This document shows, piece after piece, positions 19,529 to 32,817 of a stretch of 64,000 bases of DNA. The translations under genes were made by a program, and so were the position numbers. Where the stretch lies: NCBI RefSeq assembly GCF_056712565.1, contig NZ_CM160072.1. The stretch is one strand, 5' to 3'. Each line of letters begins with the position of its first letter. Positions within the stretch are counted from its first letter, which is position 1. The notes under the pieces were generated by a model. That model did not search any database. It had not been told where the DNA came from and saw only the letters and a list, made by a program, of their open reading frames with translations.

Positions 19529-19696
19529 CGATCCGAACGTTACAGAAAGAAAAAGCGCCCCGTTGCTGGATAACAGGCAAAACAAAGGCGACCGGGATAG
19601 GTCGCCAGTGGGAACAAAGGAAATCAAACGCATCGCCAACAATGCCAGATTTGCGGCTGGTGGGCAATGTGATCAGTGTGCTGGCTTGCTGGTGGG

Positions 19697-20149: not shown

Positions 20150-20177
20150 TGGTACACCTCACTTAAATGGATTTGAT

Positions 20178-20257
20178 GGGCGCACACAATACAGCAAAAA
20201 AAGTGAGAAGTTAAGTATTGACATGTGCGCACACATGATTTTAATCTGTGCGCACAG
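20178..20257. promoter_or_regulatory. operator-like region: three copies of palindrome TGTGCGCACA (core 20224..20233; perfect 12-bp palindrome ctgtgcgcacag 20246..20257; half-site copy 20178..20188)
   Basis: Read directly; palindromes bracket a near-consensus promoter. Confidence 0.6.
20218..20245 (+). promoter_or_regulatory. candidate sigma70 promoter of the rightward replication operon (TTGACA, 16 bp, TTTAAT)
   Basis: Perfect -35 hexamer at 20218..20223; -10-like tttaat at 20240..20245; overlapped by operator palindromes. Confidence 0.45.
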
Positions 20258-20354
20258 TTTGGGTTGCATTGCTCAAATTAAGCAACGCCCCGCAGTGCTC
20301 GCAACACATGCAGGGCGTCTAACCACCAACGATAGAAAGCGTATCGAGGTAGCT

Positions 20355-20558
20355 ATGTTAAATCATACCACACACCCGCAAGGGCGGGACTCGCACAACC
20401 TGAATAAATACATCTGGCGTTTTATCGCCCTGAGCACCGCACAACCACGCGTAATACACATCGAGGCCGCCAGCGAACAGGAAGCCCGTCAGCAATCCCC
20501 GGCTGGCTGCGTGATGGTATTTACTGCCCGCATCCGTCAGGGGGAATACTATGCGTGA
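20355..20558 (+). CDS. possible small ORF (67 aa) downstream of switch promoter; stop overlaps start of next gene
   Basis: ATG at 20355 in the frame of a long, otherwise implausible ORF-track ORF; translational coupling (ATGCGTGATGA) to the 85-aa gene. Confidence 0.25.
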   Translation: MLNHTTHPQGRDSHNLNKYIWRFIALSTAQPRVIHIEAASEQEARQQSPAGCVMVFTARIRQGEYYA

Positions 20559-20808
20559 TGAACGATTTATTCTTCTGGAGCAAAAATTCAGTGAAGCGCC
20601 AAAAAATGAAATTGATGCTCTTTTGCATATCGCGAATATGCTAAAAGTAGCAACGTTCCTTATAGTTTCGAATCTGGAGCATGAAACGGCGTTAGATATA
20701 CTGAACAGTGCTGTCGATTATTCTGAATATATTGCCGAGGATAAATACAGGCAATTACCAGATTTGTTAGCCCATAAATATAAAGAAGAACCTCACACCG
20801 GGAAATAA
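20551..20808 (+). CDS. hypothetical protein (85 aa)
   Basis: ORF in operon context upstream of replication gene. Confidence 0.45.
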   Translation: MRDERFILLEQKFSEAPKNEIDALLHIANMLKVATFLIVSNLEHETALDILNSAVDYSEYIAEDKYRQLPDLLAHKYKEEPHTGK

Positions 20809-20810
20809 AC

Positions 20811-21113
20811 ATGAAGAAGATTAAATTTACTGGCTTAAATGCCAGCGGACAGACTCACCCGAAAATCAGGATCGGGGATATTTTCCGGGATAAATATGGT
20901 GACAGCGTGGTTATTAATTCCGTGTATGAACGGCACATTACATACCGCCGCGCAGGGTACGACTATGACTGTGTGATGCCCGTTCATCAGTTCCGGCGTG
21001 ATTTTTCACTGGTATGTGCAGTACCACGCAGTAAGCCCACCAGTAAAGAGAAAGCACGGGCAAATATTCAGGTAATAAAGAACATGATTAACGCATTCAG
21101 GGGCAAGAAATGA
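20811..21113 (+). CDS. hypothetical protein (100 aa)
   Basis: ORF tightly packed between 85-aa ORF and replication gene (overlap ATGA at 21110). Confidence 0.45.
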   Translation: MKKIKFTGLNASGQTHPKIRIGDIFRDKYGDSVVINSVYERHITYRRAGYDYDCVMPVHQFRRDFSLVCAVPRSKPTSKEKARANIQVIKNMINAFRGKK

Positions 21114-23236
21114 AACGCGCACCGAATTTAAAGCACCAGCCGAAAGACAAAATGACGGAGGTGATTATCTTTGCGGGTAGTGATGCCTGGGCACATGCGA
21201 AAGAGTGGAGCGAATGGGCCGGAAAGCATATTGCGGCAGATGATACACATCCAGTTATTCTTGGACCGGAACAACTGGCGAGTCTGGCAGACACGCAAAT
21301 CATCGACAAAGGGCGCTATTACGTGCGCGTTTATCGTGCTGGTGAAATATCAGAGCAGCACCTTACACAGATAGCGACACTGCTTGCAGTGGCGGGTGTG
21401 AAGGAGGCGCGTTGCTACCGCAGCTTTGTTGATCAGCAGCCGGAGGACTGGACACCGCGCATGGCTGGACTGAAGGATGATGCGGAACGCGGTAACAGTC
21501 TGGTGATCAACCTTCCGGCGAAGACAAATTTCACCGGAAATTATGATGACGAATTAAAGCCTCGTGTTGAAAGTCGCGTCGATGGTGTTTTCTGGGTAAC
21601 GCCCAAAGTGGACAAGCAGTCAGGCGAAATTATCCGGCCTGAGACGTGGTTATGTTCTCCGCTTGAACTACTGGGAACAGGAACAATCGGCAAAGAGCAT
21701 TACCGCGTGATGCGCTGGAAAAAACCAGCAAACCATGAGGTCATTACAATGGCGGTCCCGTGCGGAGGCATTGGTGACCGTGACGGCTGGCGGTTGCTGA
21801 AAGACCACGGCCTTAACGTGACGACCAACGGCAAATACAGGGCTATCCTGGCTGACTGGATGCAGTTAAGCGGAAACCATGAGGAATGGCAGTTAAGCAC
21901 AACAACGGGGTGGCATTTTGGTGCGTACATCATGCCGGATGGTTCGGTCATTGGTGAATCAGAGAAACCCATCCTGTTTACCGGAAAAACTGCCGCTGTT
22001 AATGGCTATTCCGTGGCGGGAACAGCGGAGGGCTGGCGCGATACCGTGGCACGGCTGGCTGGTGGTAATCCGTCCATGATGCTGGGTGTGGCGGTATCGC
22101 TATCCGCACCATTAATCGGGCTGGTGGGTGCTGACGGCTTCGGGGTTCATCTTTTTGAGCAATCATCAGCAGGTAAAACCACCACACAGAACATTGCATC
22201 AAGTTTATGGGGAGAGCCGGACGCGCAACGGCTGACCTGGTACGGAACGGCGTTAGGTATCGCCAACGAGGCCGAAGCACATAATGACGGGCTGTTACCC
22301 CTGGATGAAATAGGCCAGGCCGGAAACGCGCGGGAGGTGTCCACGTCAGCCTATACGCTGTTTAACGGTTCCGGGAAATTACAGGGGGCGAAGGACGGCG
22401 GCAACAGGGAGATAAAACACTGGCGCACGGTGGCAATCAGCACCGGAGAAATGGACGTTGAAACATTCCTCAAAACGGAAGGGATAAAAATTAAAGCGGG
22501 GCAGCTTGTCCGTCTGCTTAACGTGCCGATGGAAAAGGCATCGCAGTTTCACGAATACAGCACCGGAAAGGCGCACGCAGACGCGTTAAAAGATGCCTGG
22601 ACAGAAAATCACGGGGCGGCAGGTCGTGAGTGGGTTAAATGGCTGGCAGGTCACCAGCAGGAGGCAAAGGACGCGGTAAGGGCATGTCGCGAGCGGTGGC
22701 GCAACCTGATACCGGAGAGCTACGGCGAGCAGGTTCACCGTGTGGGGGAAAGATTCGCCGTACTGGAGGCCGCGCTTGTGCTTTCCGGTCATGTTACAGG
22801 CTGGGATGTTCAGGCGTGCCGTGATGCAGTTCAGCATAACTTTAATGCCTGGGTGAAGGAATTCGGCACGGGCAACAGGGAATTTAAACAGATGGTTGAA
22901 CAGGCTGAGGCGTTTTTGTCGTCGTTCGGGTTCAGTCGATACCTTCCCTATCCAAACAGCGACGAGCGTGATTTACCGATTAAAGACCTTGCCGGATACA
23001 GAAAGGGGAGTATCAGAAACGAAGATGACGAGTTCCGTTTTTACACGTTCCCGCATGTGTTTGAGGGTGAGATAGCACAGGGATTTAATCCGTCTCACTT
23101 TGCCCGCGCGTTGAGTGCTGCCGGAATGCTGGAAGCGGGAGGCGACCGCCGTTACAAGAAAAAGGCGCTCGGCAGGATTGGCGGGAAGCAGCATATTTTT
23201 TACGTGCTGATGTTCCAGCCTGAAGCAGAAGATTAA
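21110..23236 (+). CDS. putative replication initiator: primase/helicase-like protein with P-loop motif (possibly DUF927-type)
   Basis: 708-aa ORF; P-loop-like FEQSSAGKTTTQ; followed immediately by iteron-like repeats and ssb. Confidence 0.55.
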   Translation: MKRAPNLKHQPKDKMTEVIIFAGSDAWAHAKEWSEWAGKHIAADDTHPVILGPEQLASLADTQIIDKGRYYVRVYRAGEISEQHLTQIATLLAVAGVKEARCYRSFVDQQPEDWTPRMAGLKDDAERGNSLVINLPAKTNFTGNYDDELKPRVESRVDGVFWVTPKVDKQSGEIIRPETWLCSPLELLGTGTIGKEHYRVMRWKKPANHEVITMAVPCGGIGDRDGWRLLKDHGLNVTTNGKYRAILADWMQLSGNHEEWQLSTTTGWHFGAYIMPDGSVIGESEKPILFTGKTAAVNGYSVAGTAEGWRDTVARLAGGNPSMMLGVAVSLSAPLIGLVGADGFGVHLFEQSSAGKTTTQNIASSLWGEPDAQRLTWYGTALGIANEAEAHNDGLLPLDEIGQAGNAREVSTSAYTLFNGSGKLQGAKDGGNREIKHWRTVAISTGEMDVETFLKTEGIKIKAGQLVRLLNVPMEKASQFHEYSTGKAHADALKDAWTENHGAAGREWVKWLAGHQQEAKDAVRACRERWRNLIPESYGEQVHRVGERFAVLEAALVLSGHVTGWDVQACRDAVQHNFNAWVKEFGTGNREFKQMVEQAEAFLSSFGFSRYLPYPNSDERDLPIKDLAGYRKGSIRNEDDEFRFYTFPHVFEGEIAQGFNPSHFARALSAAGMLEAGGDRRYKKKALGRIGGKQHIFYVLMFQPEAED

Positions 23237-23260
23237 CTTCCCTGTGTGAGGTAAAAAGTT

Positions 23261-23383
23261 GCGGGTTATGCGGGTTATCCTGTGCATAAGTTAATTAACT
23301 GCATGATTAAAAAGGAAATCAATAACCCGCACGTAACCCGCAAAACGGCAGTTATAACCCGCAAATGTGCGATTGTAACCCGC
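23261..23383. repeat. iteron-like cluster 1: two direct GCGGGTTAT copies (23261..23278) plus four inverted (A/G)TAACCCGC copies (23322..23383); candidate origin
   Basis: Read directly from sequence; between the replication protein gene and ssb. Confidence 0.7.
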
Positions 23384-23446
23384 AAAATTTCACTGTAAGA
23401 GTGTAAACAAGCGTAACTATCACGTTAAAACCGGAGAACAAACAGC

Positions 23447-23869
23447 ATGACGGCGCAAATATCAGCTTACGGGCGGCTGGTGGCTGACCCGCAGTTAAAG
23501 ACCACCAGCAAGGGCACACAAATGGCGATGGCGAGTATGGCGGTCCCCCTTCCATGCAATCAGGCAGATGACGGAACGGCGACGATGTGGTTATCCGTCC
23601 TGGCGTTTGGCAGACAGGCCGACGCACTGGCAAAACACCACAAAGGCGAACTGGTGAGCGTGGCGGGTAACATGCAGGTAAGCCAGTGGACAGGCCAGAA
23701 CGGCGAAACGCGGCAGGGCTGGCAGGTTATCGCAGACAGCGTAATCAGTGCGAGAACGGCGCGACCGGGCGGCAAAAAAGGCCAGCAAGGGCAGGCTACT
23801 GACGCACTGAACAGGGCAAAACAACAGGCGGGTAACGACGATCCGTACGGGGACGGGATACCGTTTTAA
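23447..23869 (+). CDS. ssb: single-stranded DNA-binding protein (SSB)
   Basis: 140-aa ORF with OB-fold-like N-terminus, Gly/Gln-rich linker and acidic C-terminal tip ...DDPYGDGIPF typical of SSB. Confidence 0.75.
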   Translation: MTAQISAYGRLVADPQLKTTSKGTQMAMASMAVPLPCNQADDGTATMWLSVLAFGRQADALAKHHKGELVSVAGNMQVSQWTGQNGETRQGWQVIADSVISARTARPGGKKGQQGQATDALNRAKQQAGNDDPYGDGIPF

Positions 23870-23905
23870 TTCACAACAGCGAACAGAGTAATTACAGGGG
23901 AAGGC

Positions 23906-24403
23906 ATGACAAAGCTGACCATAAACAGAAAACCGAAGGGCATTTACGGCACGCCGCAGAAAACAGCACAGGCGGCGCAGCAGCAGAATAAAACCACATC
24001 GGCGCATAAAGTGATGCCAGATAACCAGAACACACAGCAGAAGCTCACAGGAGCAACACCGCGGCGGCGTATGACCAAACAGCAGCGTAAAAACCGCAGA
24101 CGCGTTAACCGTCTTATTGAGCTATGGCCTGAATTATTCAGCCCGGAATCACCTAAGCCGCTTAAGGTGGGGATATTTGACGACCTGATACAGGATATTG
24201 CCGCGAGAGGTATTTCACTCGGACAGGGAACACTACGCGCAACGCTGGCGCGTTATGTGCAGACTCCGCGCTATTACCGCGCCCTGGTAGCTGGTGGCGC
24301 GCGTTACGACCTGAAAGGCCAGCCGTGCGGCGAGGTAACACCACTACAACAGACGCACGCAGGAAAACTACTGGAGGAGATGAATGGAAATAGTAAGAAA
24401 TGA
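23906..24403 (+). CDS. FinO/ProQ-domain RNA-binding protein
   Basis: 165-aa ORF; [82 protein letters not shown] matches the FinO/ProQ N-terminal domain pattern (PLKIGI...LR.AL..YT.S..YL....GA.R.DL.G...G.V). Confidence 0.7.
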
Positions 24404-24800
24404 TCACGCACATGGTCGCCGTGCAGGTGATCACATTGTGGATGAAATGGCGGAAAAACAAAGAGTTGACATTATTGTCAGTGTCACAGTCGAGAGCGCG
24501 AAGCGCCAAAATAAGCGTATAAATGATCGTTCAGATGTACATGGTGTGATCACTCGTTTACGCCAGACTTTTGTAACTCGTGAAGAGATGATTGAAGCTA
24601 TTGACCAGCATACAGCATGTATCAGCGTCAGGGATATACCGGAGGTCATTGCTAACTACTTCATGATCACCAGACGCCTTTACCGGAGAAAAGACAAGAG
24701 CACGGTTAACCGTCTCCTGATGTCTGATATTCGCGAATACCTGCAAGAAAGGGGCTATGTGAATCCACCAGAACAGCGCTACGGAAGAGTCGGAGGCTAA
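24384..24800 (+). CDS. hypothetical protein (138 aa), start overlaps FinO-like gene
   Basis: ORF with 20-bp overlap with upstream gene; no family recognised. Confidence 0.4.
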
Positions 24801-25166
24801 CTAAAACCCTGTACCGAAGAGCGGCGGCGCGATGGGGTGAAGTAATGCAGTTGGGAAACTGATAAGGAACGGTATTACATATCAATGCGACGACTGGAAT
24901 GTTCCAGGAAGGCACAGAGGCCACCGAAGCAACCGGATAATTTAGAAGACCTGAAACGGTCGCTTAAACGCACTGAAAAAGAAATGGGGATAGATGGGAT
25001 CGGGAAATCAGTATGGCGTAACTACCAGAAGTAAGCACAGAGCCGGAGCAATCCGGCTTTTTTTGGGGCTGAAATCAATCAATCTGTTTTTGTGATAGAA
25101 ATATGTTTATCTACCACTTTTTCAGATCAATAATGTGCATAGTTTAGTCAGTAAGAGGAAATTGCT

Positions 25167-25373
25167 GTGAATTGTATTAACGACCTGAACACAGGCGATG
25201 TCAGAGGTGGTTCCGTTCATCTGGATGCACAGACCGTGATGCGCATTAAGCAGTACAGAATCGACCATGTGAACAATCACCCTGATCAGCCATTACCAGG
25301 CGTGGCGCAGATTGTCAGACATGCCGTAAACGCCTGGCTTAATCAGAATGGTTTTGCATCGGGGGGTGAGTAA
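25167..25373 (+). CDS. small hypothetical protein (68 aa) upstream of large-protein operon
   Basis: ORF only; GTG/ATG start ambiguous. Confidence 0.3.
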   Translation: MNCINDLNTGDVRGGSVHLDAQTVMRIKQYRIDHVNNHPDQPLPGVAQIVRHAVNAWLNQNGFASGGE

Positions 25374-25469
25374 TGAATCGCTGGTACAGCATCAAAGCAG
25401 AGGGACGCCAATGTTATCTAACTCAGGTTTTATGAATTCTGACTCCCGATTCAAAATAGGAGGTTACTA

Positions 25470-28001
25470 ATGCCAGTCGTACCAACAGTATCCGGACGTC
25501 AGGTTGAGAGCCGTGGAGTTCAGTCAGCAGGCTTGCAGACGTTTTCTCAGCCAGGTATTAGTGATGCTTTTGTTCGTGCAGGAGCAGAGGCAATTGATGT
25601 TCTGGGTCAGGCAAAACAGCGTGCCAATATTGCCTTGGTTCAGGAGGCATCCCTTAAACTCAGTCAGACAGGCAGTGATCTGCTGAATAATCCTGAAACA
25701 GGATTGCTTAACCTGAAAGGGAAAAATGCTATTGGAAAAGGCCATGAGTATACGCAGCAGTTTGATGCTCAGGTCGAACAACTGGCTATGTCGCTGCCGG
25801 ATGAACAGGCCCGTAATGCTTTCATGCAGCAGGCACAGCAGCAGCGCATTCAGTTCACTACGCAGGCCGGGCGGTACGAGATCGGGCAAATAAATGCCTA
25901 CGAAGAAGGCCAGTTTCAGGCTACGCTGCTGAACAATGGTAAAAATGCCGCAGCATTGTATGGCGACAACGCCGCATACGTATTGGCTAATAAGCAAACT
26001 TTCCAGCAAATTGAGGAGTACGGCATTGCGCATGGCTGGAGCGACGAGCAGATTCGGGCCAGGAAAATCGAGTTTAAAGAAGCAACAGCAAAAGCAACTG
26101 CTCAAAATGCTATTGGAGCAAACTATCTTCAGGTAAGACAGCAAAACGGCGAGTTAAGCGATACTGCTGCTGGAGCTCGCCGTGCTGTAGCAGATAGTGG
26201 ATCTTCCGATCGTACCCGCGGTATACGCAACAATAACCCCGGCAATCTTGAATACAGCAAAACTAATCCGTGGGTTGGGCAGACTGGTGATGATGGTCGC
26301 TTTGCTAAATTCGAAACACCTGAACACGGTATTCGTGCATTAGGGCGGAACCTGATGTCGTATCAGCGGCAGGGTATTGATACCGTCAGCGAGATAATTA
26401 ATCGCTGGGCACCGCCTACTGATAAAAATGACACTATGTCGTATATCAAAGCAGTGTGCGAACAACTTGGCGTTTCTGCTGATGATCCTATAGATGCATC
26501 TAATCCGGATACCCTGAAGGCGCTTTGTGCAGCCATTATCCATCATGAAAACGGTAGCCAGCCATACAGTGATCAGCAGTTAACTGCAGGTGTTAGTGCT
26601 GCGCTGGGGCTTTCTCAGCTACCGACAAAAAATAAACGTTATACCGGTGTAGCCTGGTTCGATGCTTTAAGTGAATCGGATCAGGCCAGCGTGTTGCGAC
26701 AGACTGATGCACTAGCCAGACAACAGCAGGCTGAATATAAAACGATGCTCGACAGCCAGGTTCGCGATGCGACAGCTGCGTATATGCGTGGCGTTGAATT
26801 TCCTAACCCACCAGGTGAGGCTGATTTTATTGCAGCTTATGGCGTCAGAGAAGGAAACCTGCGATATACCGAGTTCAGAAATACGCAGATCGCCGGACAG
26901 TATATAGGCTCTTTCCGCAACATGCCGACAAGCAGCATTACCGCATATGTTGAGCAATTGCGCCCGGATACTGGTGAAACAGGGGAGGGGTATGCGTCTC
27001 GTGCGAAGTTATTCGACCGGGTATCGGCGGCAGCCACGAAGGTAATAACCCAGAGGCAGAATAATCCGTTTAGTGCAGCGGTGGAAATCGGAGCCTATAA
27101 GCCGATCACCAGCAACAACCCTGACGACATCACTGCCGAGGTGGCTAACCGTTTCTCGTCGCAGGAAAGCTTACGCGCGTTGGGAATTAATGCCCCAATC
27201 CTCAACAGTGAAGAGGCGGCTGCGCTGGCACAGCAGGTGCGCGGCACTCAAAACGTTGACCAGACAATTAAACTGTTGCAGAGCATGGGGGAAAAGCTAC
27301 CTGCGCCAGCAATACGGCAGGTGGCATCTGTAATTGCTCCGAACAGTGCAGCAACAGCCTATTCTGCGCTGCTGCTGGGCACGCCGGATAATCAGTACGA
27401 TAACACCAGGCCGTCGATCCCATATAGTCAGTTCATCGGGTATAAGCCGACGATGAACAAGTACGACGTTGCAAAGGTTATTCTTTCCGGTGACCAACTA
27501 CTGAATCCGACGAAGGCTATGAAGAATGCGGGCATAACTCCGGTACAGTTGCCGAGCGAAGATAAAATGAAGCGCGCTTTCGACGAACAGGTTGGTAATG
27601 CATTTGCCCGTAACCCAGAGACGCGCCAGATCAGTTATAGCCTTTTCAAAGCCGCTTACGCAGGAATCGCTTATCAGTCTGGTAATGCGTCTATGACGAG
27701 CACAGATGCGGTTAACTCCGATGTGGCGGAGAAAGCTGCGCAGTACGCAACAGGCGGTGTATACAAGAGATTTAATGGTGGTGATGTTGTAATGCCTTTC
27801 GGCATGGATGAATCCACTTTCAAAGATCGCTATACCACATCAGCGAAACAAGCACTGAAAGATGCCGGACTTAACGTAAATGCAGTGTCAAACTTCACAC
27901 CAGTTAATATCGGCAATAACCGGTATCGGCTGGTAAATGGTAGCGGACGCTGGGCAACAGATCCCAGAACCAATGAAGCTATTGTCGTGAGGGTTGAATA
28001 A
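25470..28001 (+). CDS. large hypothetical protein A (843 aa), Q/A-rich, with conserved central segment GIRNNNPGNLEYSKTNPWVGQ...WAPPTDKNDT...HHENG
   Basis: Strong SD (aggagg) 8 nt upstream of ATG; stop overlaps next start (TAATG). Composition resembles phage internal virion / ejection or polyvalent proteins; no family confidently assigned. Confidence 0.6.
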   Translation: MPVVPTVSGRQVESRGVQSAGLQTFSQPGISDAFVRAGAEAIDVLGQAKQRANIALVQEASLKLSQTGSDLLNNPETGLLNLKGKNAIGKGHEYTQQFDAQVEQLAMSLPDEQARNAFMQQAQQQRIQFTTQAGRYEIGQINAYEEGQFQATLLNNGKNAAALYGDNAAYVLANKQTFQQIEEYGIAHGWSDEQIRARKIEFKEATAKATAQNAIGANYLQVRQQNGELSDTAAGARRAVADSGSSDRTRGIRNNNPGNLEYSKTNPWVGQTGDDGRFAKFETPEHGIRALGRNLMSYQRQGIDTVSEIINRWAPPTDKNDTMSYIKAVCEQLGVSADDPIDASNPDTLKALCAAIIHHENGSQPYSDQQLTAGVSAALGLSQLPTKNKRYTGVAWFDALSESDQASVLRQTDALARQQQAEYKTMLDSQVRDATAAYMRGVEFPNPPGEADFIAAYGVREGNLRYTEFRNTQIAGQYIGSFRNMPTSSITAYVEQLRPDTGETGEGYASRAKLFDRVSAAATKVITQRQNNPFSAAVEIGAYKPITSNNPDDITAEVANRFSSQESLRALGINAPILNSEEAAALAQQVRGTQNVDQTIKLLQSMGEKLPAPAIRQVASVIAPNSAATAYSALLLGTPDNQYDNTRPSIPYSQFIGYKPTMNKYDVAKVILSGDQLLNPTKAMKNAGITPVQLPSEDKMKRAFDEQVGNAFARNPETRQISYSLFKAAYAGIAYQSGNASMTSTDAVNSDVAEKAAQYATGGVYKRFNGGDVVMPFGMDESTFKDRYTTSAKQALKDAGLNVNAVSNFTPVNIGNNRYRLVNGSGRWATDPRTNEAIVVRVE

Positions 28002-30061
28002 TGTCTGATGTTTTTTCTTTGGCTCCAGAAGGTCAGGCATGGATTGACGACAAAACAGTTGCCAACCCAGCAAGGCCAGAAGACTACGATCCGACTCCCT
28101 TCCAGGGTTCAGGTACTGCACTTTTGAGCGGCGTGGCGGAGGGGGCTCTCGGTCTCGCGCAGTCTGCCGTCGGATTCAGCAAGCGCCTGATTAGCGATCC
28201 GGCATTTACCGCAGACGTGGCACCGACTGTTAATATTTTTCGGGAGATGTTCCCTGATGCTGACAAAACACTGAATGATACATACGACACGATCGGAAAA
28301 CAGTTACAGGATGCCCGCAGCTATGTGAAGCCTGATGCAGGCAGTCAGGGAATGGCGGCTGAGGTATTAAATGAGCTTGGTAAATTTGTTCCTGCAATCG
28401 GAACAACTATGTTTGGCGGTCCCCTCATCGGCGCTGCTACAGCTTTCAGTTCTACGTATGAGCAGTCCTATCAGGATTTTAAAGGGAAGGGAGTAGACGA
28501 GGCTACGGCGCGTAACCTGGCAACGCAGCAAAGCCTTTTCAATGCTGTGGGTATGGCCTTACCCGCTGCCGTCGGCACCACACTGGCAACGCGCATTGCC
28601 TCAGGTGTGGCAATCAACACCGGATTCGGTGGACTGAACCGTTACTCTGTCGGCGCAACACTGGAGGAAAAAGGCTACACGGAGATGGCAAAACAGTACC
28701 GGGTATTTGACGGTCAGGCGATGTTAGTCGATGCCGTTTTAGGCGGGGTCTTTGGTGGCGTTCATCACCTGACTACCCATAATAACCATGATGGTACAGA
28801 GTCGAACATTTCTGCAGAAGAAATAAAATCAACTTTTGGTGAACATTATCAGCAATCTCCTGATGGTAACATTGAGTCAATGGTTCGTGATTTATCTGAT
28901 TCAGGAGTAATAGAACTTATTAATGAACCAGCAATAAAAAATAGTGATGGAGAAATACTTCTGAATAAAGGTCATGTGACAGTAGCTTCTGGAAAAGAAC
29001 CAATAATAAGAATAAATATTAATGGATTAAAAGATCATGAAGAACTGTTAGAAACCCTTCATCACGAGGCGCTTCATCTTGAGCAGCGCCATTACCCTGA
29101 CTGGAAGGCCAGAAAGCTAGCTAATGCTGTACTTAAATCTGCAAACAAGCATTCTGACTATCCTGAATTTGCATATGGGATGTCACAATATTATGAATAT
29201 AAGAAAAGGGGTGAGTACCCTGAAACATATCCTGAGTGGTTGTACGCTGAAGAAGTTGCCGCACATGCAGTAAATCCATCTCTAAAGACAAGCGTTTCAT
29301 CATGGGAAAAAATTATTTCAGGTTTTAAAGCCTATATATTCAGATACAGTGGTATTCAGGTTGGAACCGTTACACCTGAGCAGTTACGGTTACTCGTAAG
29401 TATGCGTCTTCGCAATATGAAACTGGAAGCCGCAGTCGAAAAAGTTTTTGGTATCCGGGCAAGGGAAAGAATAAAACCAAGCGATATTGATGCAGCCCAC
29501 ATTTTGAATGAGGGGCTTCATTACGATATTGAATCGTCACCAGTGCTTCACACCAGCAATGAGAGCATCAACAGCCATGTTGACGCCATGGATGAAGCAT
29601 ACAGGCAACTTAATGATGGTCAGCCTGTAAATGTTGGGGGGATGGCGCGAGGGCTTGATGGTCCATTGCGATCAGATATATCTGATACTTACCAAGAGCA
29701 ATACCATGAAATACAAAAGGTTTTTGAAGAAAATGGTGTCAGATATGAAACATCATCAGAGCCAATTAGTGAATCGCCTGTCCCTCGTGCTGAAAGTGCT
29801 TTCTCATCGGCTGGTGAACACAGAGGGGACGTCAGCGTTGATCCAGATACAGGGCAGGTTCTCTCATCCAACAGCTATGACCTTATGGCTGCCAGAGACA
29901 TGGCTGTTGCCAATCCTGAGCTGACTATAGCTCACCCGGAAACCGGAAACCCGACAAAACTTTCTGATCTCCTGGCTGAGTTGGATGAACAGATTAAGAC
30001 AGTCCAGAACGAATCGAAGGTTTATTCTGTAGCGGCAGCGTGCTTCTTGAGGAACCCATAA
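28001..30061 (+). CDS. large hypothetical protein B (686 aa) with glycine-zipper-like hydrophobic N-terminal region and HExxH zinc-metallopeptidase motif (LHHEALHLEQRH)
   Basis: Translationally coupled on both sides; HEALH motif encoded within a conspicuously AT-rich segment (about 28790..29350). Confidence 0.6.
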   Translation: MSDVFSLAPEGQAWIDDKTVANPARPEDYDPTPFQGSGTALLSGVAEGALGLAQSAVGFSKRLISDPAFTADVAPTVNIFREMFPDADKTLNDTYDTIGKQLQDARSYVKPDAGSQGMAAEVLNELGKFVPAIGTTMFGGPLIGAATAFSSTYEQSYQDFKGKGVDEATARNLATQQSLFNAVGMALPAAVGTTLATRIASGVAINTGFGGLNRYSVGATLEEKGYTEMAKQYRVFDGQAMLVDAVLGGVFGGVHHLTTHNNHDGTESNISAEEIKSTFGEHYQQSPDGNIESMVRDLSDSGVIELINEPAIKNSDGEILLNKGHVTVASGKEPIIRININGLKDHEELLETLHHEALHLEQRHYPDWKARKLANAVLKSANKHSDYPEFAYGMSQYYEYKKRGEYPETYPEWLYAEEVAAHAVNPSLKTSVSSWEKIISGFKAYIFRYSGIQVGTVTPEQLRLLVSMRLRNMKLEAAVEKVFGIRARERIKPSDIDAAHILNEGLHYDIESSPVLHTSNESINSHVDAMDEAYRQLNDGQPVNVGGMARGLDGPLRSDISDTYQEQYHEIQKVFEENGVRYETSSEPISESPVPRAESAFSSAGEHRGDVSVDPDTGQVLSSNSYDLMAARDMAVANPELTIAHPETGNPTKLSDLLAELDEQIKTVQNESKVYSVAAACFLRNP

Positions 30062-32817
30062 TGAAACAGGCATGTGTTGAAGCTATTGCGCAGACACTTG
30101 GTCGCCAGCCAAAGGCTGATGAGCTGAAAAATATCGAAGATCGTATCAAAGAAGCAGTGCAACATGTGCACAGAAAGAATGCAAAAGAAGGCAAAAGTGG
30201 TATTCCTGATGCTCAAACATACATGGATGCTGCAGAACTGGTACGCCAGCGTGTGGTTCATGATGTGTACAAGAAAAGACAGCGTGTTGCCCAGAATGCG
30301 ATCGCCATCAGTAAAATTACTGACACTCTCGATGCTAACATCCCGCCTGATCAGCAGACACCTGTTAATTTGCAGCAGTTTATTTTTGCTGGCCGACGAT
30401 CGAGAGACAAAGCTGATATCTCCGTTGCTTCTGCTGAAGAGCTTGCAATTGGGGCATATCAGGACTGGTCCCGTCAGCTCAGTGCTGAACTTCTAAAAGC
30501 AGGTGATGACGTCCGCAAATTCTTCGAGCAGAGCAGGGCGCTTGGAGAGCAGCGGTTTCGGAGTGTATTCGACAGGCAGGCGGCAAAGTCTGCACAACTC
30601 CAGATCCTGAAAGAAATTTATGGCGAAGATACCGGGAATCCCCTGGCGAAGAAAATTGCACAGATTTGGAAGGATGTAACAGGCCGTGTTCGTCATGAGA
30701 TGAACGACAACGGCTTTGACATAGGCCTGCGAGAAGACTGGCATACGCCATATGTGGATGATGCTGACCTTATTCGCAATGCCGGGCGCGAAGAATGGCT
30801 GGCATCGTTACCAGTGGCAGAGCAAGCTACAGCACGTCTTTCAGGTCGCCAGCCACCGATTGAGTTTGCCCGCCAGAAATGGGTTGATGACGCTTACAAC
30901 ACGCAGGATCGCAGCAATTACGTTAATCCTGACGGCAGCATTATGAATGACGTCGAGTACCGTCAGGCACTGGAAGCGATCTTTGAAACGAAGGCCACTG
31001 ATGGGGCAAACAAAATTGAGCCCGGTACATTTATGGGAGCCGGAGGAATAAAGAGCCGTGGTTCTCAGCACAGGGTGATGGCGTTCAAGGATGCGCAGTC
31101 ACACTTCGCCTATATGGAGCGATACACTCAGCAGCCGCTGGTGGGGGTGATGATGTCGCACCTGCAATCATCATCCAGGGATTTGGGCGTCGTTAAAGCC
31201 TTTGGTCCGGACGCCGAAAGAAACTTTTCCCTGGTACTGGATCGCATCTATAAGCGCGCAGTAACAGGCGGGAAACGCAAAAAAGAAATGGAGGATGAGG
31301 CCAAATTAGTAGCCCGTATGTTCAACTCAATGGCTGGCCTAAATGGTGTCGCTTCATCGAGTGTGTTCTCTTCAGCTGTTGGTGGTCTGCGTAACCTGAT
31401 GACCAGCGCCATGCTTGGCACCAGCGTACTGACAGCAACCAGCGACCAGGCAATTATGCGGGCAAATGCGCAGGCGCTGGGCTTTACCCGTGGTGGAATG
31501 CGGCTTTCCGTTAACACTATCAAAAACCTGTTTAGTGGAGATGCCAAAAAGGCGAATGCTGAACTCGGTCTGCTGGTGGATTCACATGCTGCTGTGGTTT
31601 CGAAAATGGGCGGGTTTGACTTGTCTCGCGGCATAACTGGCTGGTTCGCAGAGAAGACACTGAAGTGGTCCGGGCTGATCGCTATGGACCGCGCAAACAA
31701 AGCGTCGTTTGGTCTCCTGATGTACAAAAACATTGGCGAGCTGACCAGAAAATTTAAGACGCTGGACGATATGAAAGGAACCGATAAAACCATTCTGGCT
31801 AACAAGGGATGGAGCAATGAGGACTGGGCCATCATGGCAGCGGCAGAACTCAGGCCGATGACTACTGCCGGGCATATGGGGATGACGCCAGACGCGATTT
31901 ACGCTGTGCCCGATAACGTAATCGCCGACATTATGGCAGACCGTATTACCCGGATTCGTGCCGGGAGTGAAAAGGCACTGGCAGCACTTGGAGATCTCCC
32001 TCCAGAACGCCTGAAACGGATGAAAGAAGCATTCGACGCTGAGGCTGAGCAGACCATCACGCGCATGATTCGTAATGCACGCGCTGAAGCAGCCCATAAA
32101 TTGCTGGGAATTACGCACGGTGAGATGACCAATGCTGTGACCACCGCTACGGGTATTGATACATATGCCCGTGATGATGCTGGCGAGTTAATGAAGAGCT
32201 TCATGCTCTTCAAAACAACCCCATTTGCTGGATTTCGGCAACTTGTTAACAGAACACGGGATTTGGACACCGTTCCGGCCATTAAATTTCTGGCCTCATA
32301 TATCGGGGGAACAACTCTTGCTGGTATGTTTGCGATCCAGATGAACAGTTTGTTAAATGGTAATGATCCGCTGGATATGACAAAACCAACCACATGGGTT
32401 CAGGCTTTACTGAAAGGTGGTTCGTTCGGTATCTACGGTGATTTTATTTTCCAGGACCATACGCAATATGGCTCCAGCATCGGTGCCACTATGGGTGGCC
32501 CTGTGTTGAGCTTTGCAGAGCAGTTAACAAAATTACTGATTACTAACCCACAGAAGGCTCTACAGGGTGAAGAAACATCATTCGGTGCCGATGCACTGAA
32601 AACAGCCCGCATGATCACCCCATTCGCAAACCTGTGGTATGCGAAAGCGATAACCAATCACCTGATATTGCAACAACTTCAGGAGATGGCAAACCCTGGT
32701 TACAATGATCGAGTAAGGGACCGCGCGCAACGGGAGTTCGACATAACGAGTTGGTGGGAACCGGGTGCTATTGCGCCACGTAGAGCACCGGATTTTGGAA
32801 AGGCGGTAGGGGAATGA
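30061..32817 (+). CDS. large hypothetical protein C (about 918 aa)
   Basis: ATG at 30061 overlaps stop of protein B (TAATG); ORF track offers an upstream GTG at 30040. Stop overlaps start of the next small ORF (ATGA). Confidence 0.6.
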   Translation: MKQACVEAIAQTLGRQPKADELKNIEDRIKEAVQHVHRKNAKEGKSGIPDAQTYMDAAELVRQRVVHDVYKKRQRVAQNAIAISKITDTLDANIPPDQQTPVNLQQFIFAGRRSRDKADISVASAEELAIGAYQDWSRQLSAELLKAGDDVRKFFEQSRALGEQRFRSVFDRQAAKSAQLQILKEIYGEDTGNPLAKKIAQIWKDVTGRVRHEMNDNGFDIGLREDWHTPYVDDADLIRNAGREEWLASLPVAEQATARLSGRQPPIEFARQKWVDDAYNTQDRSNYVNPDGSIMNDVEYRQALEAIFETKATDGANKIEPGTFMGAGGIKSRGSQHRVMAFKDAQSHFAYMERYTQQPLVGVMMSHLQSSSRDLGVVKAFGPDAERNFSLVLDRIYKRAVTGGKRKKEMEDEAKLVARMFNSMAGLNGVASSSVFSSAVGGLRNLMTSAMLGTSVLTATSDQAIMRANAQALGFTRGGMRLSVNTIKNLFSGDAKKANAELGLLVDSHAAVVSKMGGFDLSRGITGWFAEKTLKWSGLIAMDRANKASFGLLMYKNIGELTRKFKTLDDMKGTDKTILANKGWSNEDWAIMAAAELRPMTTAGHMGMTPDAIYAVPDNVIADIMADRITRIRAGSEKALAALGDLPPERLKRMKEAFDAEAEQTITRMIRNARAEAAHKLLGITHGEMTNAVTTATGIDTYARDDAGELMKSFMLFKTTPFAGFRQLVNRTRDLDTVPAIKFLASYIGGTTLAGMFAIQMNSLLNGNDPLDMTKPTTWVQALLKGGSFGIYGDFIFQDHTQYGSSIGATMGGPVLSFAEQLTKLLITNPQKALQGEETSFGADALKTARMITPFANLWYAKAITNHLILQQLQEMANPGYNDRVRDRAQREFDITSWWEPGAIAPRRAPDFGKAVGE

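Follow-up and report, generated by a model that had tools for sequence, protein, structure and literature searches.

Which RNA does a FinO/ProQ-domain protein bind when its gene lies in a phage satellite, and what might it control there? The question is raised by a 165-aa open reading frame (ORF), referred to below as finO-like, in a 64,000-nt stretch of Escherichia coli chromosome (NCBI RefSeq assembly GCF_056712565.1, contig NZ_CM160072.1), the whole of which is called the window. Positions 23200-25500 of the window are 100% identical to several complete E. coli genomes, and the annotation of an identical genome places the gene in an integrase-bearing island of ∼20 kb between yicC and dinD. 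Among bacterial RNA matchmakers, FinO/ProQ proteins make up the second major class, and to our knowledge only a handful of them have known ligands (FinO, FopA, PcnR, RocC, ProQ, and NMB1681). The analysis described here points to a functional-looking FinO-domain protein and, as its likeliest ligand, to a candidate countertranscript RNA (ctRNA) of ∼85 nt, encoded opposite the leader of an icd-like gene that heads the primase gene block of the island.

The FinO/ProQ Domain and Its RNA-Binding Residues

The product of the finO-like gene is almost certainly a FinO/ProQ-domain protein. It matched Pfam PF04352 (i-E = 1.6e-23, 83.2 bits, model positions 5-102 of 109; Table 1), and phmmer against PDB sequences retrieved the ProQ N-terminal domain (5nb9, 2e-14) and FinO (1dvo, 4e-11), followed by Lpp1663, NMB1681, and RocC; among 1.8 billion cluster representatives, 1929 were matched at E ≤ 1e-3. 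The NCBIfam models for ProQ and FinO both matched at 1e-15, but with scores far under their curated cut-offs (57.5 bits versus 127 for ProQ, NF003434, only profile positions 9-107 of 205 being covered; 55.7 bits versus 136 for FinO of F-like plasmids, NF010317), and the protein is therefore neither ProQ nor FinO proper. It stops at residue 165, with no linker or Tudor-type C-terminal domain, and the context of FinO sensu stricto (tra operon, FinP, and traJ) is absent from its surroundings.

With 20 close homologues as input, AlphaFold2 (AF2) gave a model of low quality (predicted local distance difference test, pLDDT, of 57); a second model, built with 80 diverse sequences from the search of cluster representatives, had a pLDDT of 84.6 overall and >94 over residues 60-160. 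Helices at residues 58-73, 90-101, 107-118, 121-129, and 146-164 and strands at 132-134 and 140-143 reproduce the shallow bowl of about five α-helices and a two-stranded β-hairpin that defines the fold. All 26 Foldseek matches in the PDB at E ≤ 1e-3 were FinO-domain structures, the next matches having E > 3; 1dvo was superposed with a root-mean-square deviation of 2.0 Å over 102 columns at 29% identity, and RocC matched with target-normalised TM scores of 0.70-0.84. Pfam and Foldseek thus agree in supporting a FinO fold, and the initial annotation of a FinO-like protein with a basic N-terminal tail is borne out. RefSeq already names the product as a family member, so the domain identification itself is not new.

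In the crystal structure of RocC with RocR, the pocket for the 3′ nucleotide comprises Gly52, Tyr87, and Arg97, and the N-cap helix carries Arg75 (PMC9674577); the equivalents here are G89, Y123, and R133 in the pocket and R111 in the N-cap. The three pocket residues align with KIGIF, WRY, and TRVD of ProQ and with SY and CRYD of FinO. In the 80-sequence alignment Y123 was invariant and G89 and R133 were at least 90% conserved, and within the island subfamily both Y123 and R133 are invariant; the N-cap arginine R111 is conserved as well. The N-terminus of the N-cap helix is present in the AF2 model; the Ser-Lys-Thr of ProQ corresponds to G106-Q107-G108, a Gly-x-Gly conserved across the island subfamily.

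The protein as a whole (18.6 kDa) has an isoelectric point (pI) of 10.65, and its N-terminal extension had low pLDDT and no secondary structure, is predicted to be disordered, and opens with a 15-residue motif that is conserved across the subfamily. On the modelled fold, the disordered basic extension, and the intact 3′-end pocket residues, this appears to be a functional FinO/ProQ-domain protein and, by analogy with its characterized relatives, it very probably binds RNA hairpins with 3′ tails.

The gene is preceded directly by a Shine-Dalgarno (SD) sequence (AGGGGAAGG, 23896-23904), and the RefSeq limits of finO and of the next gene, ORF138, are identical to those of the ORFs. The two genes overlap by 20 nt on the plus strand, and the SD of ORF138 (GGAGGAG) lies 4 nt before its ATG, an arrangement of the coupling type that agrees with the translational coupling proposed at first. 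Upstream, the 36-nt spacer between ssb and finO held no terminator-like hairpin, and co-transcription of the two is therefore likely. A hidden RNA element within finO itself was ruled out, as synonymous-site diversity was uniformly low across 48 distinct alleles with no outlier window, and homology 5′ of finO among related islands begins just ∼15-20 nt before the ATG. Weak terminator-like sites on the minus strand of ssb and finO coincide with runs of Lys/Arg codons and have poor stems.

A Candidate Countertranscript Opposite the icd Leader

Just one RNA structure that is both conserved and covarying was found in the island, ∼3.5 kb upstream of finO at the start of icd. Aligned icd leaders contained a covarying hairpin, then the unvarying sequence CTAACCA(CCAACG), and then another small hairpin directly next to the icd SD. 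The main hairpin was more stable on the minus strand in all 28 distinct variants (mean −23.6 versus −16.9 kcal/mol), C·A mismatches of the sense strand being G·U pairs on the other, and U-rich tracts (e.g., UUGCUUAAUUU, UUGUUUUUUUU, and UUUGCUUUUUU) followed the hairpin on the minus strand only. RNAalifold with 33 distinct minus-strand sequences gave a consensus of 23 pairs in which 98.3% of the cells were paired and G·U pairs were frequent, with compensatory changes at nine of the pairs. The observed consensus values were not attained in any of 500 column shuffles, and all slid registers collapsed. The 88-nt RNA of the window folded at −38.0 kcal/mol (z = −5.3) on the minus strand versus −24.0 kcal/mol (z = −2.6) on the plus strand.

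A −10-like hexamer occurs, at a constant distance, in 93 of 93 distinct type-1 leader regions (TATGAT in 81, TATAAT in nine), with TG at −15/−14 in 88; because this signal sits inside icd codons 3-6, its conservation is only suggestive of a promoter. No minus-strand gene was present upstream of the terminator hairpin, so that the simplest reading is a dedicated countertranscript of ∼85 nt over the icd SD and start codon, and we infer that the structure is transcribed as such.

A covariance model of the ctRNA scored 90 bits in the window and 78 bits in the related island of E. coli 55989 (locus L002, 5100-5187, minus strand), and matched neither EcCIMP1, a characterized E. coli satellite, nor two loci with finO in a non-replicative context (L003 and L004). 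By blastn the element occurs in at least 1585 of 5426 E. coli genomes and in about 150 IMG/VR loci; no RNA feature was annotated under any of 12 genome matches sampled. The antisense element is not in Rfam: no known RNA family was found in the island, either at gathering thresholds over the whole window or at E ≤ 5 over 14500-35000, the latter scan giving four weak matches, none of them in 23237-23446 or 24800-25470. Three leader variants gave reproducible full-length matches to RF00043 (16.8-18.3 bits, under the gathering score of 55), the R1162/IncQ repA-leader locus known for a 75-nt copy-control countertranscript, with which the element has in common the order hairpin-CUAACCACCAAC-hairpin-SD-AUG.

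An immunity RNA of the P1 C4 or P4 CI type before icd was also considered and was rejected, as a 291-nt search gave no C4 match, the structure lies on the opposite strand, and the ctRNA model does not match P1 immI beyond one weak hit (12.1 bits, E = 0.008) far from c4-icd.

The Host Island and a Proposed Control Circuit

The 5′ part of the island carries an integrase, a hypothetical gene, an AlpA-like helix-turn-helix (HTH) gene, and Rha, AntA/AntB, and Bro-N antirepressor-type genes. A hypothetical gene and a YlcI/YnfO-family gene form a divergent minus-strand pair, and the plus-strand block consists of the icd-like gene, a hypothetical gene, DUF4222, and the DUF927 primase-helicase, which is the replication protein of the island; downstream of the primase lie iterons, ssb, finO, ORF138, a frameshifted perC, a 68-aa ORF, and three large ORFs. 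Gene content and order match those of EcCIMP1 and of capsid-forming phage-inducible chromosomal islands (cf-PICIs), and from this similarity the element appears to be an integrated satellite of the PICI type, with a DUF927 primase-helicase and iterons in place of RepZ/Inc, and not a plasmid-like replicon.

A promoter/terminator scan combined with folding gave no strong plus-strand terminator from ∼20250 to 25039. The genes from icd through the hypothetical gene, DUF4222, primase, origin, ssb, and finO to ORF138 probably form one transcription unit, with finO distal, that ends at the intrinsic terminator at 25039-25066. This terminator, absent from the output of the scan, was recognised on visual inspection, and folding confirmed it; it is likely the 3′ end of the ssb-finO-ORF138 transcript and is itself a possible FinO-domain ligand.

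From these elements a control circuit can be proposed. By homology, the FinO domain would grip an RNA hairpin at its base and enclose the 3′-OH end of a short single-stranded tail such as that of an intrinsic terminator, and its likeliest ligand would be the minus-strand ctRNA, with its strong terminator hairpin and U-rich tail. Binding would stabilise the ctRNA and speed its pairing with the icd leader, and pairing would damp translation of the early and replication genes, and hence replication of the island after induction. Since finO sits in the same gene block that the ctRNA would control, the result would be a negative feedback loop, with an architecture like those of FinO-FinP-traJ and FopA/PcnR-Inc-rep. 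In islands that have no finO, host ProQ could fill the role. The full chain (a transcribed ctRNA, a single transcription unit, FinO-ctRNA binding, and negative feedback on the early and replication genes) is put forward tentatively, as a serious possibility.

Distribution of finO and Its Co-occurrence With the Candidate Countertranscript

Homologues of finO were found by DNA search in 1077 of 5426 complete E. coli genomes, at 1542 places, all of them chromosomal and none on a plasmid. Sequenced phages contained no close homologue (at best ≤45% identity over half of the protein), and in plasmid collections matches of >60% identity occurred only in chromosome-sized records and in no true plasmid, homologues on plasmids having ∼30% identity and true plasmid FinO 31-34%.

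Nearly all of 78 IMG/VR loci retrieved with the protein have the order icd-DUF4222-DUF927-[ori]-(ssb)-finO-(perC). The fixed position directly after primase, origin, and ssb might suggest a replication accessory factor that binds DUF927 primers or the ends of RNA-DNA hybrids, or structured single-stranded DNA at the iterons, and the FinO pocket reads a 3′-OH ribose end beside a helix, as a primer terminus would offer (PMC9674577). Against such a role, which is considered very unlikely, most sister islands with the same primase, origin, and ssb lack finO, and many finO-bearing loci lack ssb; finO is linked more tightly to perC, of which an ORF lies immediately 3′ of finO in 47 of 66 non-redundant finO-bearing loci. 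In most related islands an intact perC overlaps finO stop-to-start, as with the ATGA overlap in E. coli 55989. We know of no FinO-family protein that is a replication accessory factor.

For a sample chosen independently of FinO, 120 IMG/VR stretches were collected by an exact 17-mer of the ctRNA core, and 85 of them extended at least 6.5 kb downstream. A FinO-domain protein was encoded in 20 of these 85 ctRNA-bearing islands, tblastn and a FinO hidden Markov model on six-frame ORFs being in agreement, and obligate co-occurrence of FinO and the ctRNA is thereby ruled out. FinO-less islands continue with ssb (with or without perC) and then a capsid module, and for that reason look like capsid-forming PICIs; finO is thus an accessory gene at the boundary of the replication and morphogenesis modules. 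The initial annotation had placed it inside the replication module, which holds in that the gene adjoins primase, origin, and ssb, but not in the sense of a core component. Among sister islands with the icd-primase-ssb module, some are of an ejection-protein type, some form capsids (with either of two major-capsid families or with a ClpP-capsid fusion), and others belong to neither group. Of the capsid types, the most frequent one occurred in none of 66 finO-bearing versus 23 of 40 finO-less non-redundant loci.

Several points weigh against the proposed circuit. The ctRNA family does not need FinO, 65 of the 85 islands having none, and the pairing of the two is therefore put no higher than plausible; hairpin sequence classes are common to islands with and without FinO, and FinO homologues also occur in islands with no match to the ctRNA (L003 and L004). 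On the protein side, Gly-x-Gly stands in the place of the N-cap Ser-Lys-Thr of ProQ, and the FinO of the window has lost the basic C-terminal tail typical of its homologues. The promoter and 3′ end of the ctRNA are predictions, promoter conservation being confounded by the coding constraints of icd; the single operon is deduced solely from the missing strong terminators; and the resemblance to RF00043, below the significance threshold, is a lead and not evidence.

In the main rival reading, FinO would be a chaperone for other RNAs, such as terminators of island mRNAs, host small RNAs (sRNAs) or 3′ untranslated regions of the ProQ class, or antisense RNAs of helper or competing phages, and the satellite would rewire post-transcriptional control of its host or helper and not its own replication. 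FinO domains read structure, a hairpin with a 3′ tail, and not sequence (PMC9977716; PMC9674577), and the island contains two strong terminators that could serve as ligands, that of its own operon (25039-25066, plus strand) and that of the operon of the ribbon-helix-helix (RHH) repressor (19587-19606, minus strand). Such a role would also suit an accessory gene that is usually coupled to perC, a regulator of host virulence genes, and in the window to a chimera resembling P1 PacA and Ant1, and that occurs in a second, non-replicative context without the ctRNA, beside AlpA-type HTH and YfjJ/YagK-family genes in remnants of pathogenicity islands. The sequence nominates no specific host or helper RNA, however, and the characterized FinO proteins of mobile elements (FinO, FopA, and PcnR) all target cis-antisense RNAs encoded by the element that carries them. 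Both the broader ligand range and the rewiring that would follow from it are regarded as somewhat unlikely, and the ctRNA is retained as the preferred ligand.

Comparison With Characterized FinO-Domain Proteins and Satellites

FinO of F-like plasmids (1dvo) and the island protein have the same fold and a basic disordered N-terminal extension, and both are encoded on a mobile element. In F, finO lies distally in a gene block under antisense control, and the island gene is likewise distal in the block that the proposed antisense RNA would target through its leader. They differ in the N-cap (S-H-K in FinO versus G-x-G in the island protein), in the lack of a tra operon or FinP in the island, and in the host element, which here would be an integrated phage satellite.

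The closest functional analogy is with FopA (pCol1B9) and PcnR (IncI2), FinO-domain repressors of plasmid replication that act via the Inc antisense RNA (PMC9977716; PMC8053102). FopA and PcnR are proposed or shown, and the island protein is proposed, to aid a cis-antisense RNA against the leader of replication genes, all three being FinO proteins of mobile elements. Whereas FopA and PcnR serve RepZ/RepA and an Inc replicon, the island has a DUF927 primase-helicase and iterons; its ctRNA would target icd at the head of the primase block and not the primase directly, and is present also in islands without FinO.

The N-terminal domain of ProQ (5nb9), the top sequence match among solved structures, has the same 3′-end pocket residues, but ProQ is a core enterobacterial gene product with a linker and a Tudor C-terminal domain, whereas the island protein is mobile and has neither. 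RocC of Legionella (7rgu, bound to the RocR terminator) has the Gly/Tyr/Arg pocket and N-cap Arg that are conserved in the island protein, but is a competence regulator encoded in the chromosome, has a long extension at its C-terminus, and belongs to unrelated biology.

Among satellites, a ProQ/FinO-like regulator receives a one-line mention in episomal satellite-plasmids of Vibrio (cf-PISP; PMC13230959), which differ from the island in being episomal and in carrying parA/repA. For EcCIMP1, an E. coli PICI with experimentally demonstrated mobilisation, the occurrence of helper-like DNA-transfer proteins 3′ of the primase was pointed out by the authors (PMC11773190); in common with the island it has int, antirepressors, icd, DUF4222, the DUF927 primase, perC, and homologues of podovirus ejection proteins, but it has no finO gene and no match to the ctRNA model. 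Neither study tests a FinO-like protein.

Downstream Neighbors and Other Features of the Window

The positions of the features of the locus are collected in Table 1. Downstream of finO, ORF138 had no Pfam domain; by tblastn its residues 7-68 share 61-69% identity with the PacA N-terminus of the P1/P7 family, and residues 59-138 share 50-74% identity with the Ant1 N-terminus of the P1 family. It is restricted to the closest relatives of this island and is a lineage-specific insertion, a chimera of PacA and Ant1 N-termini that displaced the usual partner perC; a possible function is to interfere with the packaging or immunity of a P1-like phage, or to exploit them. With its acquisition both the C-terminal tail of FinO and the N-terminus of perC were removed.

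Table 1. Positions of the finO-like gene, the candidate ctRNA, and neighboring features in the window.
Feature	Position	Strand	Remarks
Candidate ctRNA, ∼85 nt	20273..20361	−	Antisense to icd leader, SD, and start codon (20355)
ctRNA U-rich tail	20274-20283	−	
ctRNA terminator hairpin	20284-20319	−	
ctRNA stem-loop A	20320-20355	−	
Putative extended −10 of ctRNA	20362..20370	−	TGGTATGAT; ends 4 nt before the complement of the icd start codon
icd-like gene	20355..20558	+	First gene of the same-strand block icd-hypothetical-DUF4222-primase
DUF927 primase-helicase	21110..23236	+	phrog_1139 DNA primase, E = 2e-174
Origin-like iterons	23259..23396	unstranded	TAACCCGCA at 11- and 21-nt spacing; inverted copies TGCGGGTTA
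ssb, 140 aa	23447..23869	+	C-terminus ...DGIPF; ends 36 nt upstream of finO
finO-like CDS, 165 aa	23906..24403	+	ORF list; RefSeq WP_021543045, ‘ProQ/FINO family protein’
N-terminal extension, residues 1-57	23906..24076	+	pI 11.6; 11 K+R versus 1 D+E
FinO/ProQ domain, residues 64-162	24095..24391	+	Pfam PF04352
ORF138, 138 aa	24384..24800	+	SD GGAGGAG at 24373-24379, 4 nt before ATG
perC pseudogene	24809..25034	+	N-terminus missing, frameshifted
Intrinsic terminator	25039..25066	+	9-bp GC-rich stem, −14.5 kcal/mol, U7
ORF68, 68 aa	25167..25373	+	phrog_4934, E = 1e-31; conserved

The broken finO-perC unit raises the question of whether this finO is a passenger or decaying gene, an allele possibly inactive or irrelevant since the insertion of ORF138. 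Consistent with decay, perC is frameshifted and truncated at its N-terminus, and the C-terminal half of FinO is mosaic and lacks the basic tail present in most homologues. On the other hand, the ORF is intact with a good SD and all the pocket residues, and the identical protein, which falls in a cluster of 93 member sequences, is encoded on at least 1000 contigs, the locus occurring with 98.5-100% DNA identity among many unrelated strains of E. coli; decay is therefore judged improbable, and a functional-looking FinO remains the preferred interpretation.

The stretch 24800-25470 had initially been taken as non-coding and, together with 23237-23446, as the place of a small convergent transcript that would be the partner of FinO. 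The first holds the perC remnant, the intrinsic terminator, and the conserved ORF68, and the second is the iteron origin; both are replaced wholesale among related islands, and Rfam matched neither. The terminator is a structure of the FinO type, and a weak minus-strand promoter-like site lies at 23399-23372, so that a partner in these stretches is left with a slim chance, and the candidate transcript opposite the icd leader is favored.

ORF68 precedes the capsid or ejection module in sister islands. Here it is followed by the three large ORFs (843, 686, and ∼918 aa; 25470-32817, plus strand), which are homologous to internal-virion/ejection proteins of podophages of the phiV10/epsilon15 type (phrog_992, phrog_1145, and phrog_684), one with a transglycosylase region. 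These homologues lie in an island that has no capsid, tail, or lysis genes, an oddity also reported for EcCIMP1. PADLOC gave no defense-system match for FinO, ORF138, ORF68, or the large ORFs, and thus no support for a role in defense. At the distal end of the finO-bearing island of E. coli 55989 (L002, 13438-15394) lies a pair of genes encoding an AAA ATPase and a DUF4435 protein, which we take to resemble a PARIS-type anti-phage system.

At 20150-20260, between icd (plus strand) and the RHH-like gene of the YlcI/YnfO family (minus strand), a divergent promoter region contains three GTGCGCAC-type palindromes that flank and overlap a TTGACA-16-TTTAAT promoter and are likely the operator set of the island repressor; their position is kept among island lineages, and their sequence differs. 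Elsewhere in the window, tRNA-Sec (selC), a classical island insertion site, lies at 60580-60674 (plus strand) with ORFs beginning immediately downstream, and an ordinary JUMPstart element lies at 5312-5350 (minus strand), upstream of the waa/rfaQ operon.

Implications for Satellite Biology

That mobile elements carry FinO-domain genes is already known (PMC9977716). A search of the PMC and bioRxiv literature returned no paper on the island-borne FinO subfamily and no link between PICIs and FinO/ProQ except for the mention in Vibrio satellite-plasmids; as far as this literature shows, the subfamily and any role of FinO in E. coli PICIs are uncharacterized. A wider proposal, which is considered doubtful, is that E. 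coli PICI satellites use a plasmid-style countertranscript against the icd leader, to which about a quarter add a FinO chaperone of their own, usually coupled to perC, that supplants host ProQ, with an evolutionary link to the antisense control of IncQ (R1162) and F/IncI plasmids.

The subfamily is present in ∼20% of complete E. coli genomes, always in satellite or pathogenicity islands and often beside the virulence regulator perC. Should FinO not be the partner of the antisense element, the gene would simply add one more to the FinO-domain genes that automatic annotation finds on mobile elements. If it is the partner, replication or induction of the satellite would be under plasmid-like RNA control, in what would be the first circuit of an RNA and its chaperone described for a phage satellite; the locus would offer a testable system with a defined protein, an RNA of ∼85 nt, and a reporter-ready leader, and would raise the question of how island FinO competes with host ProQ.

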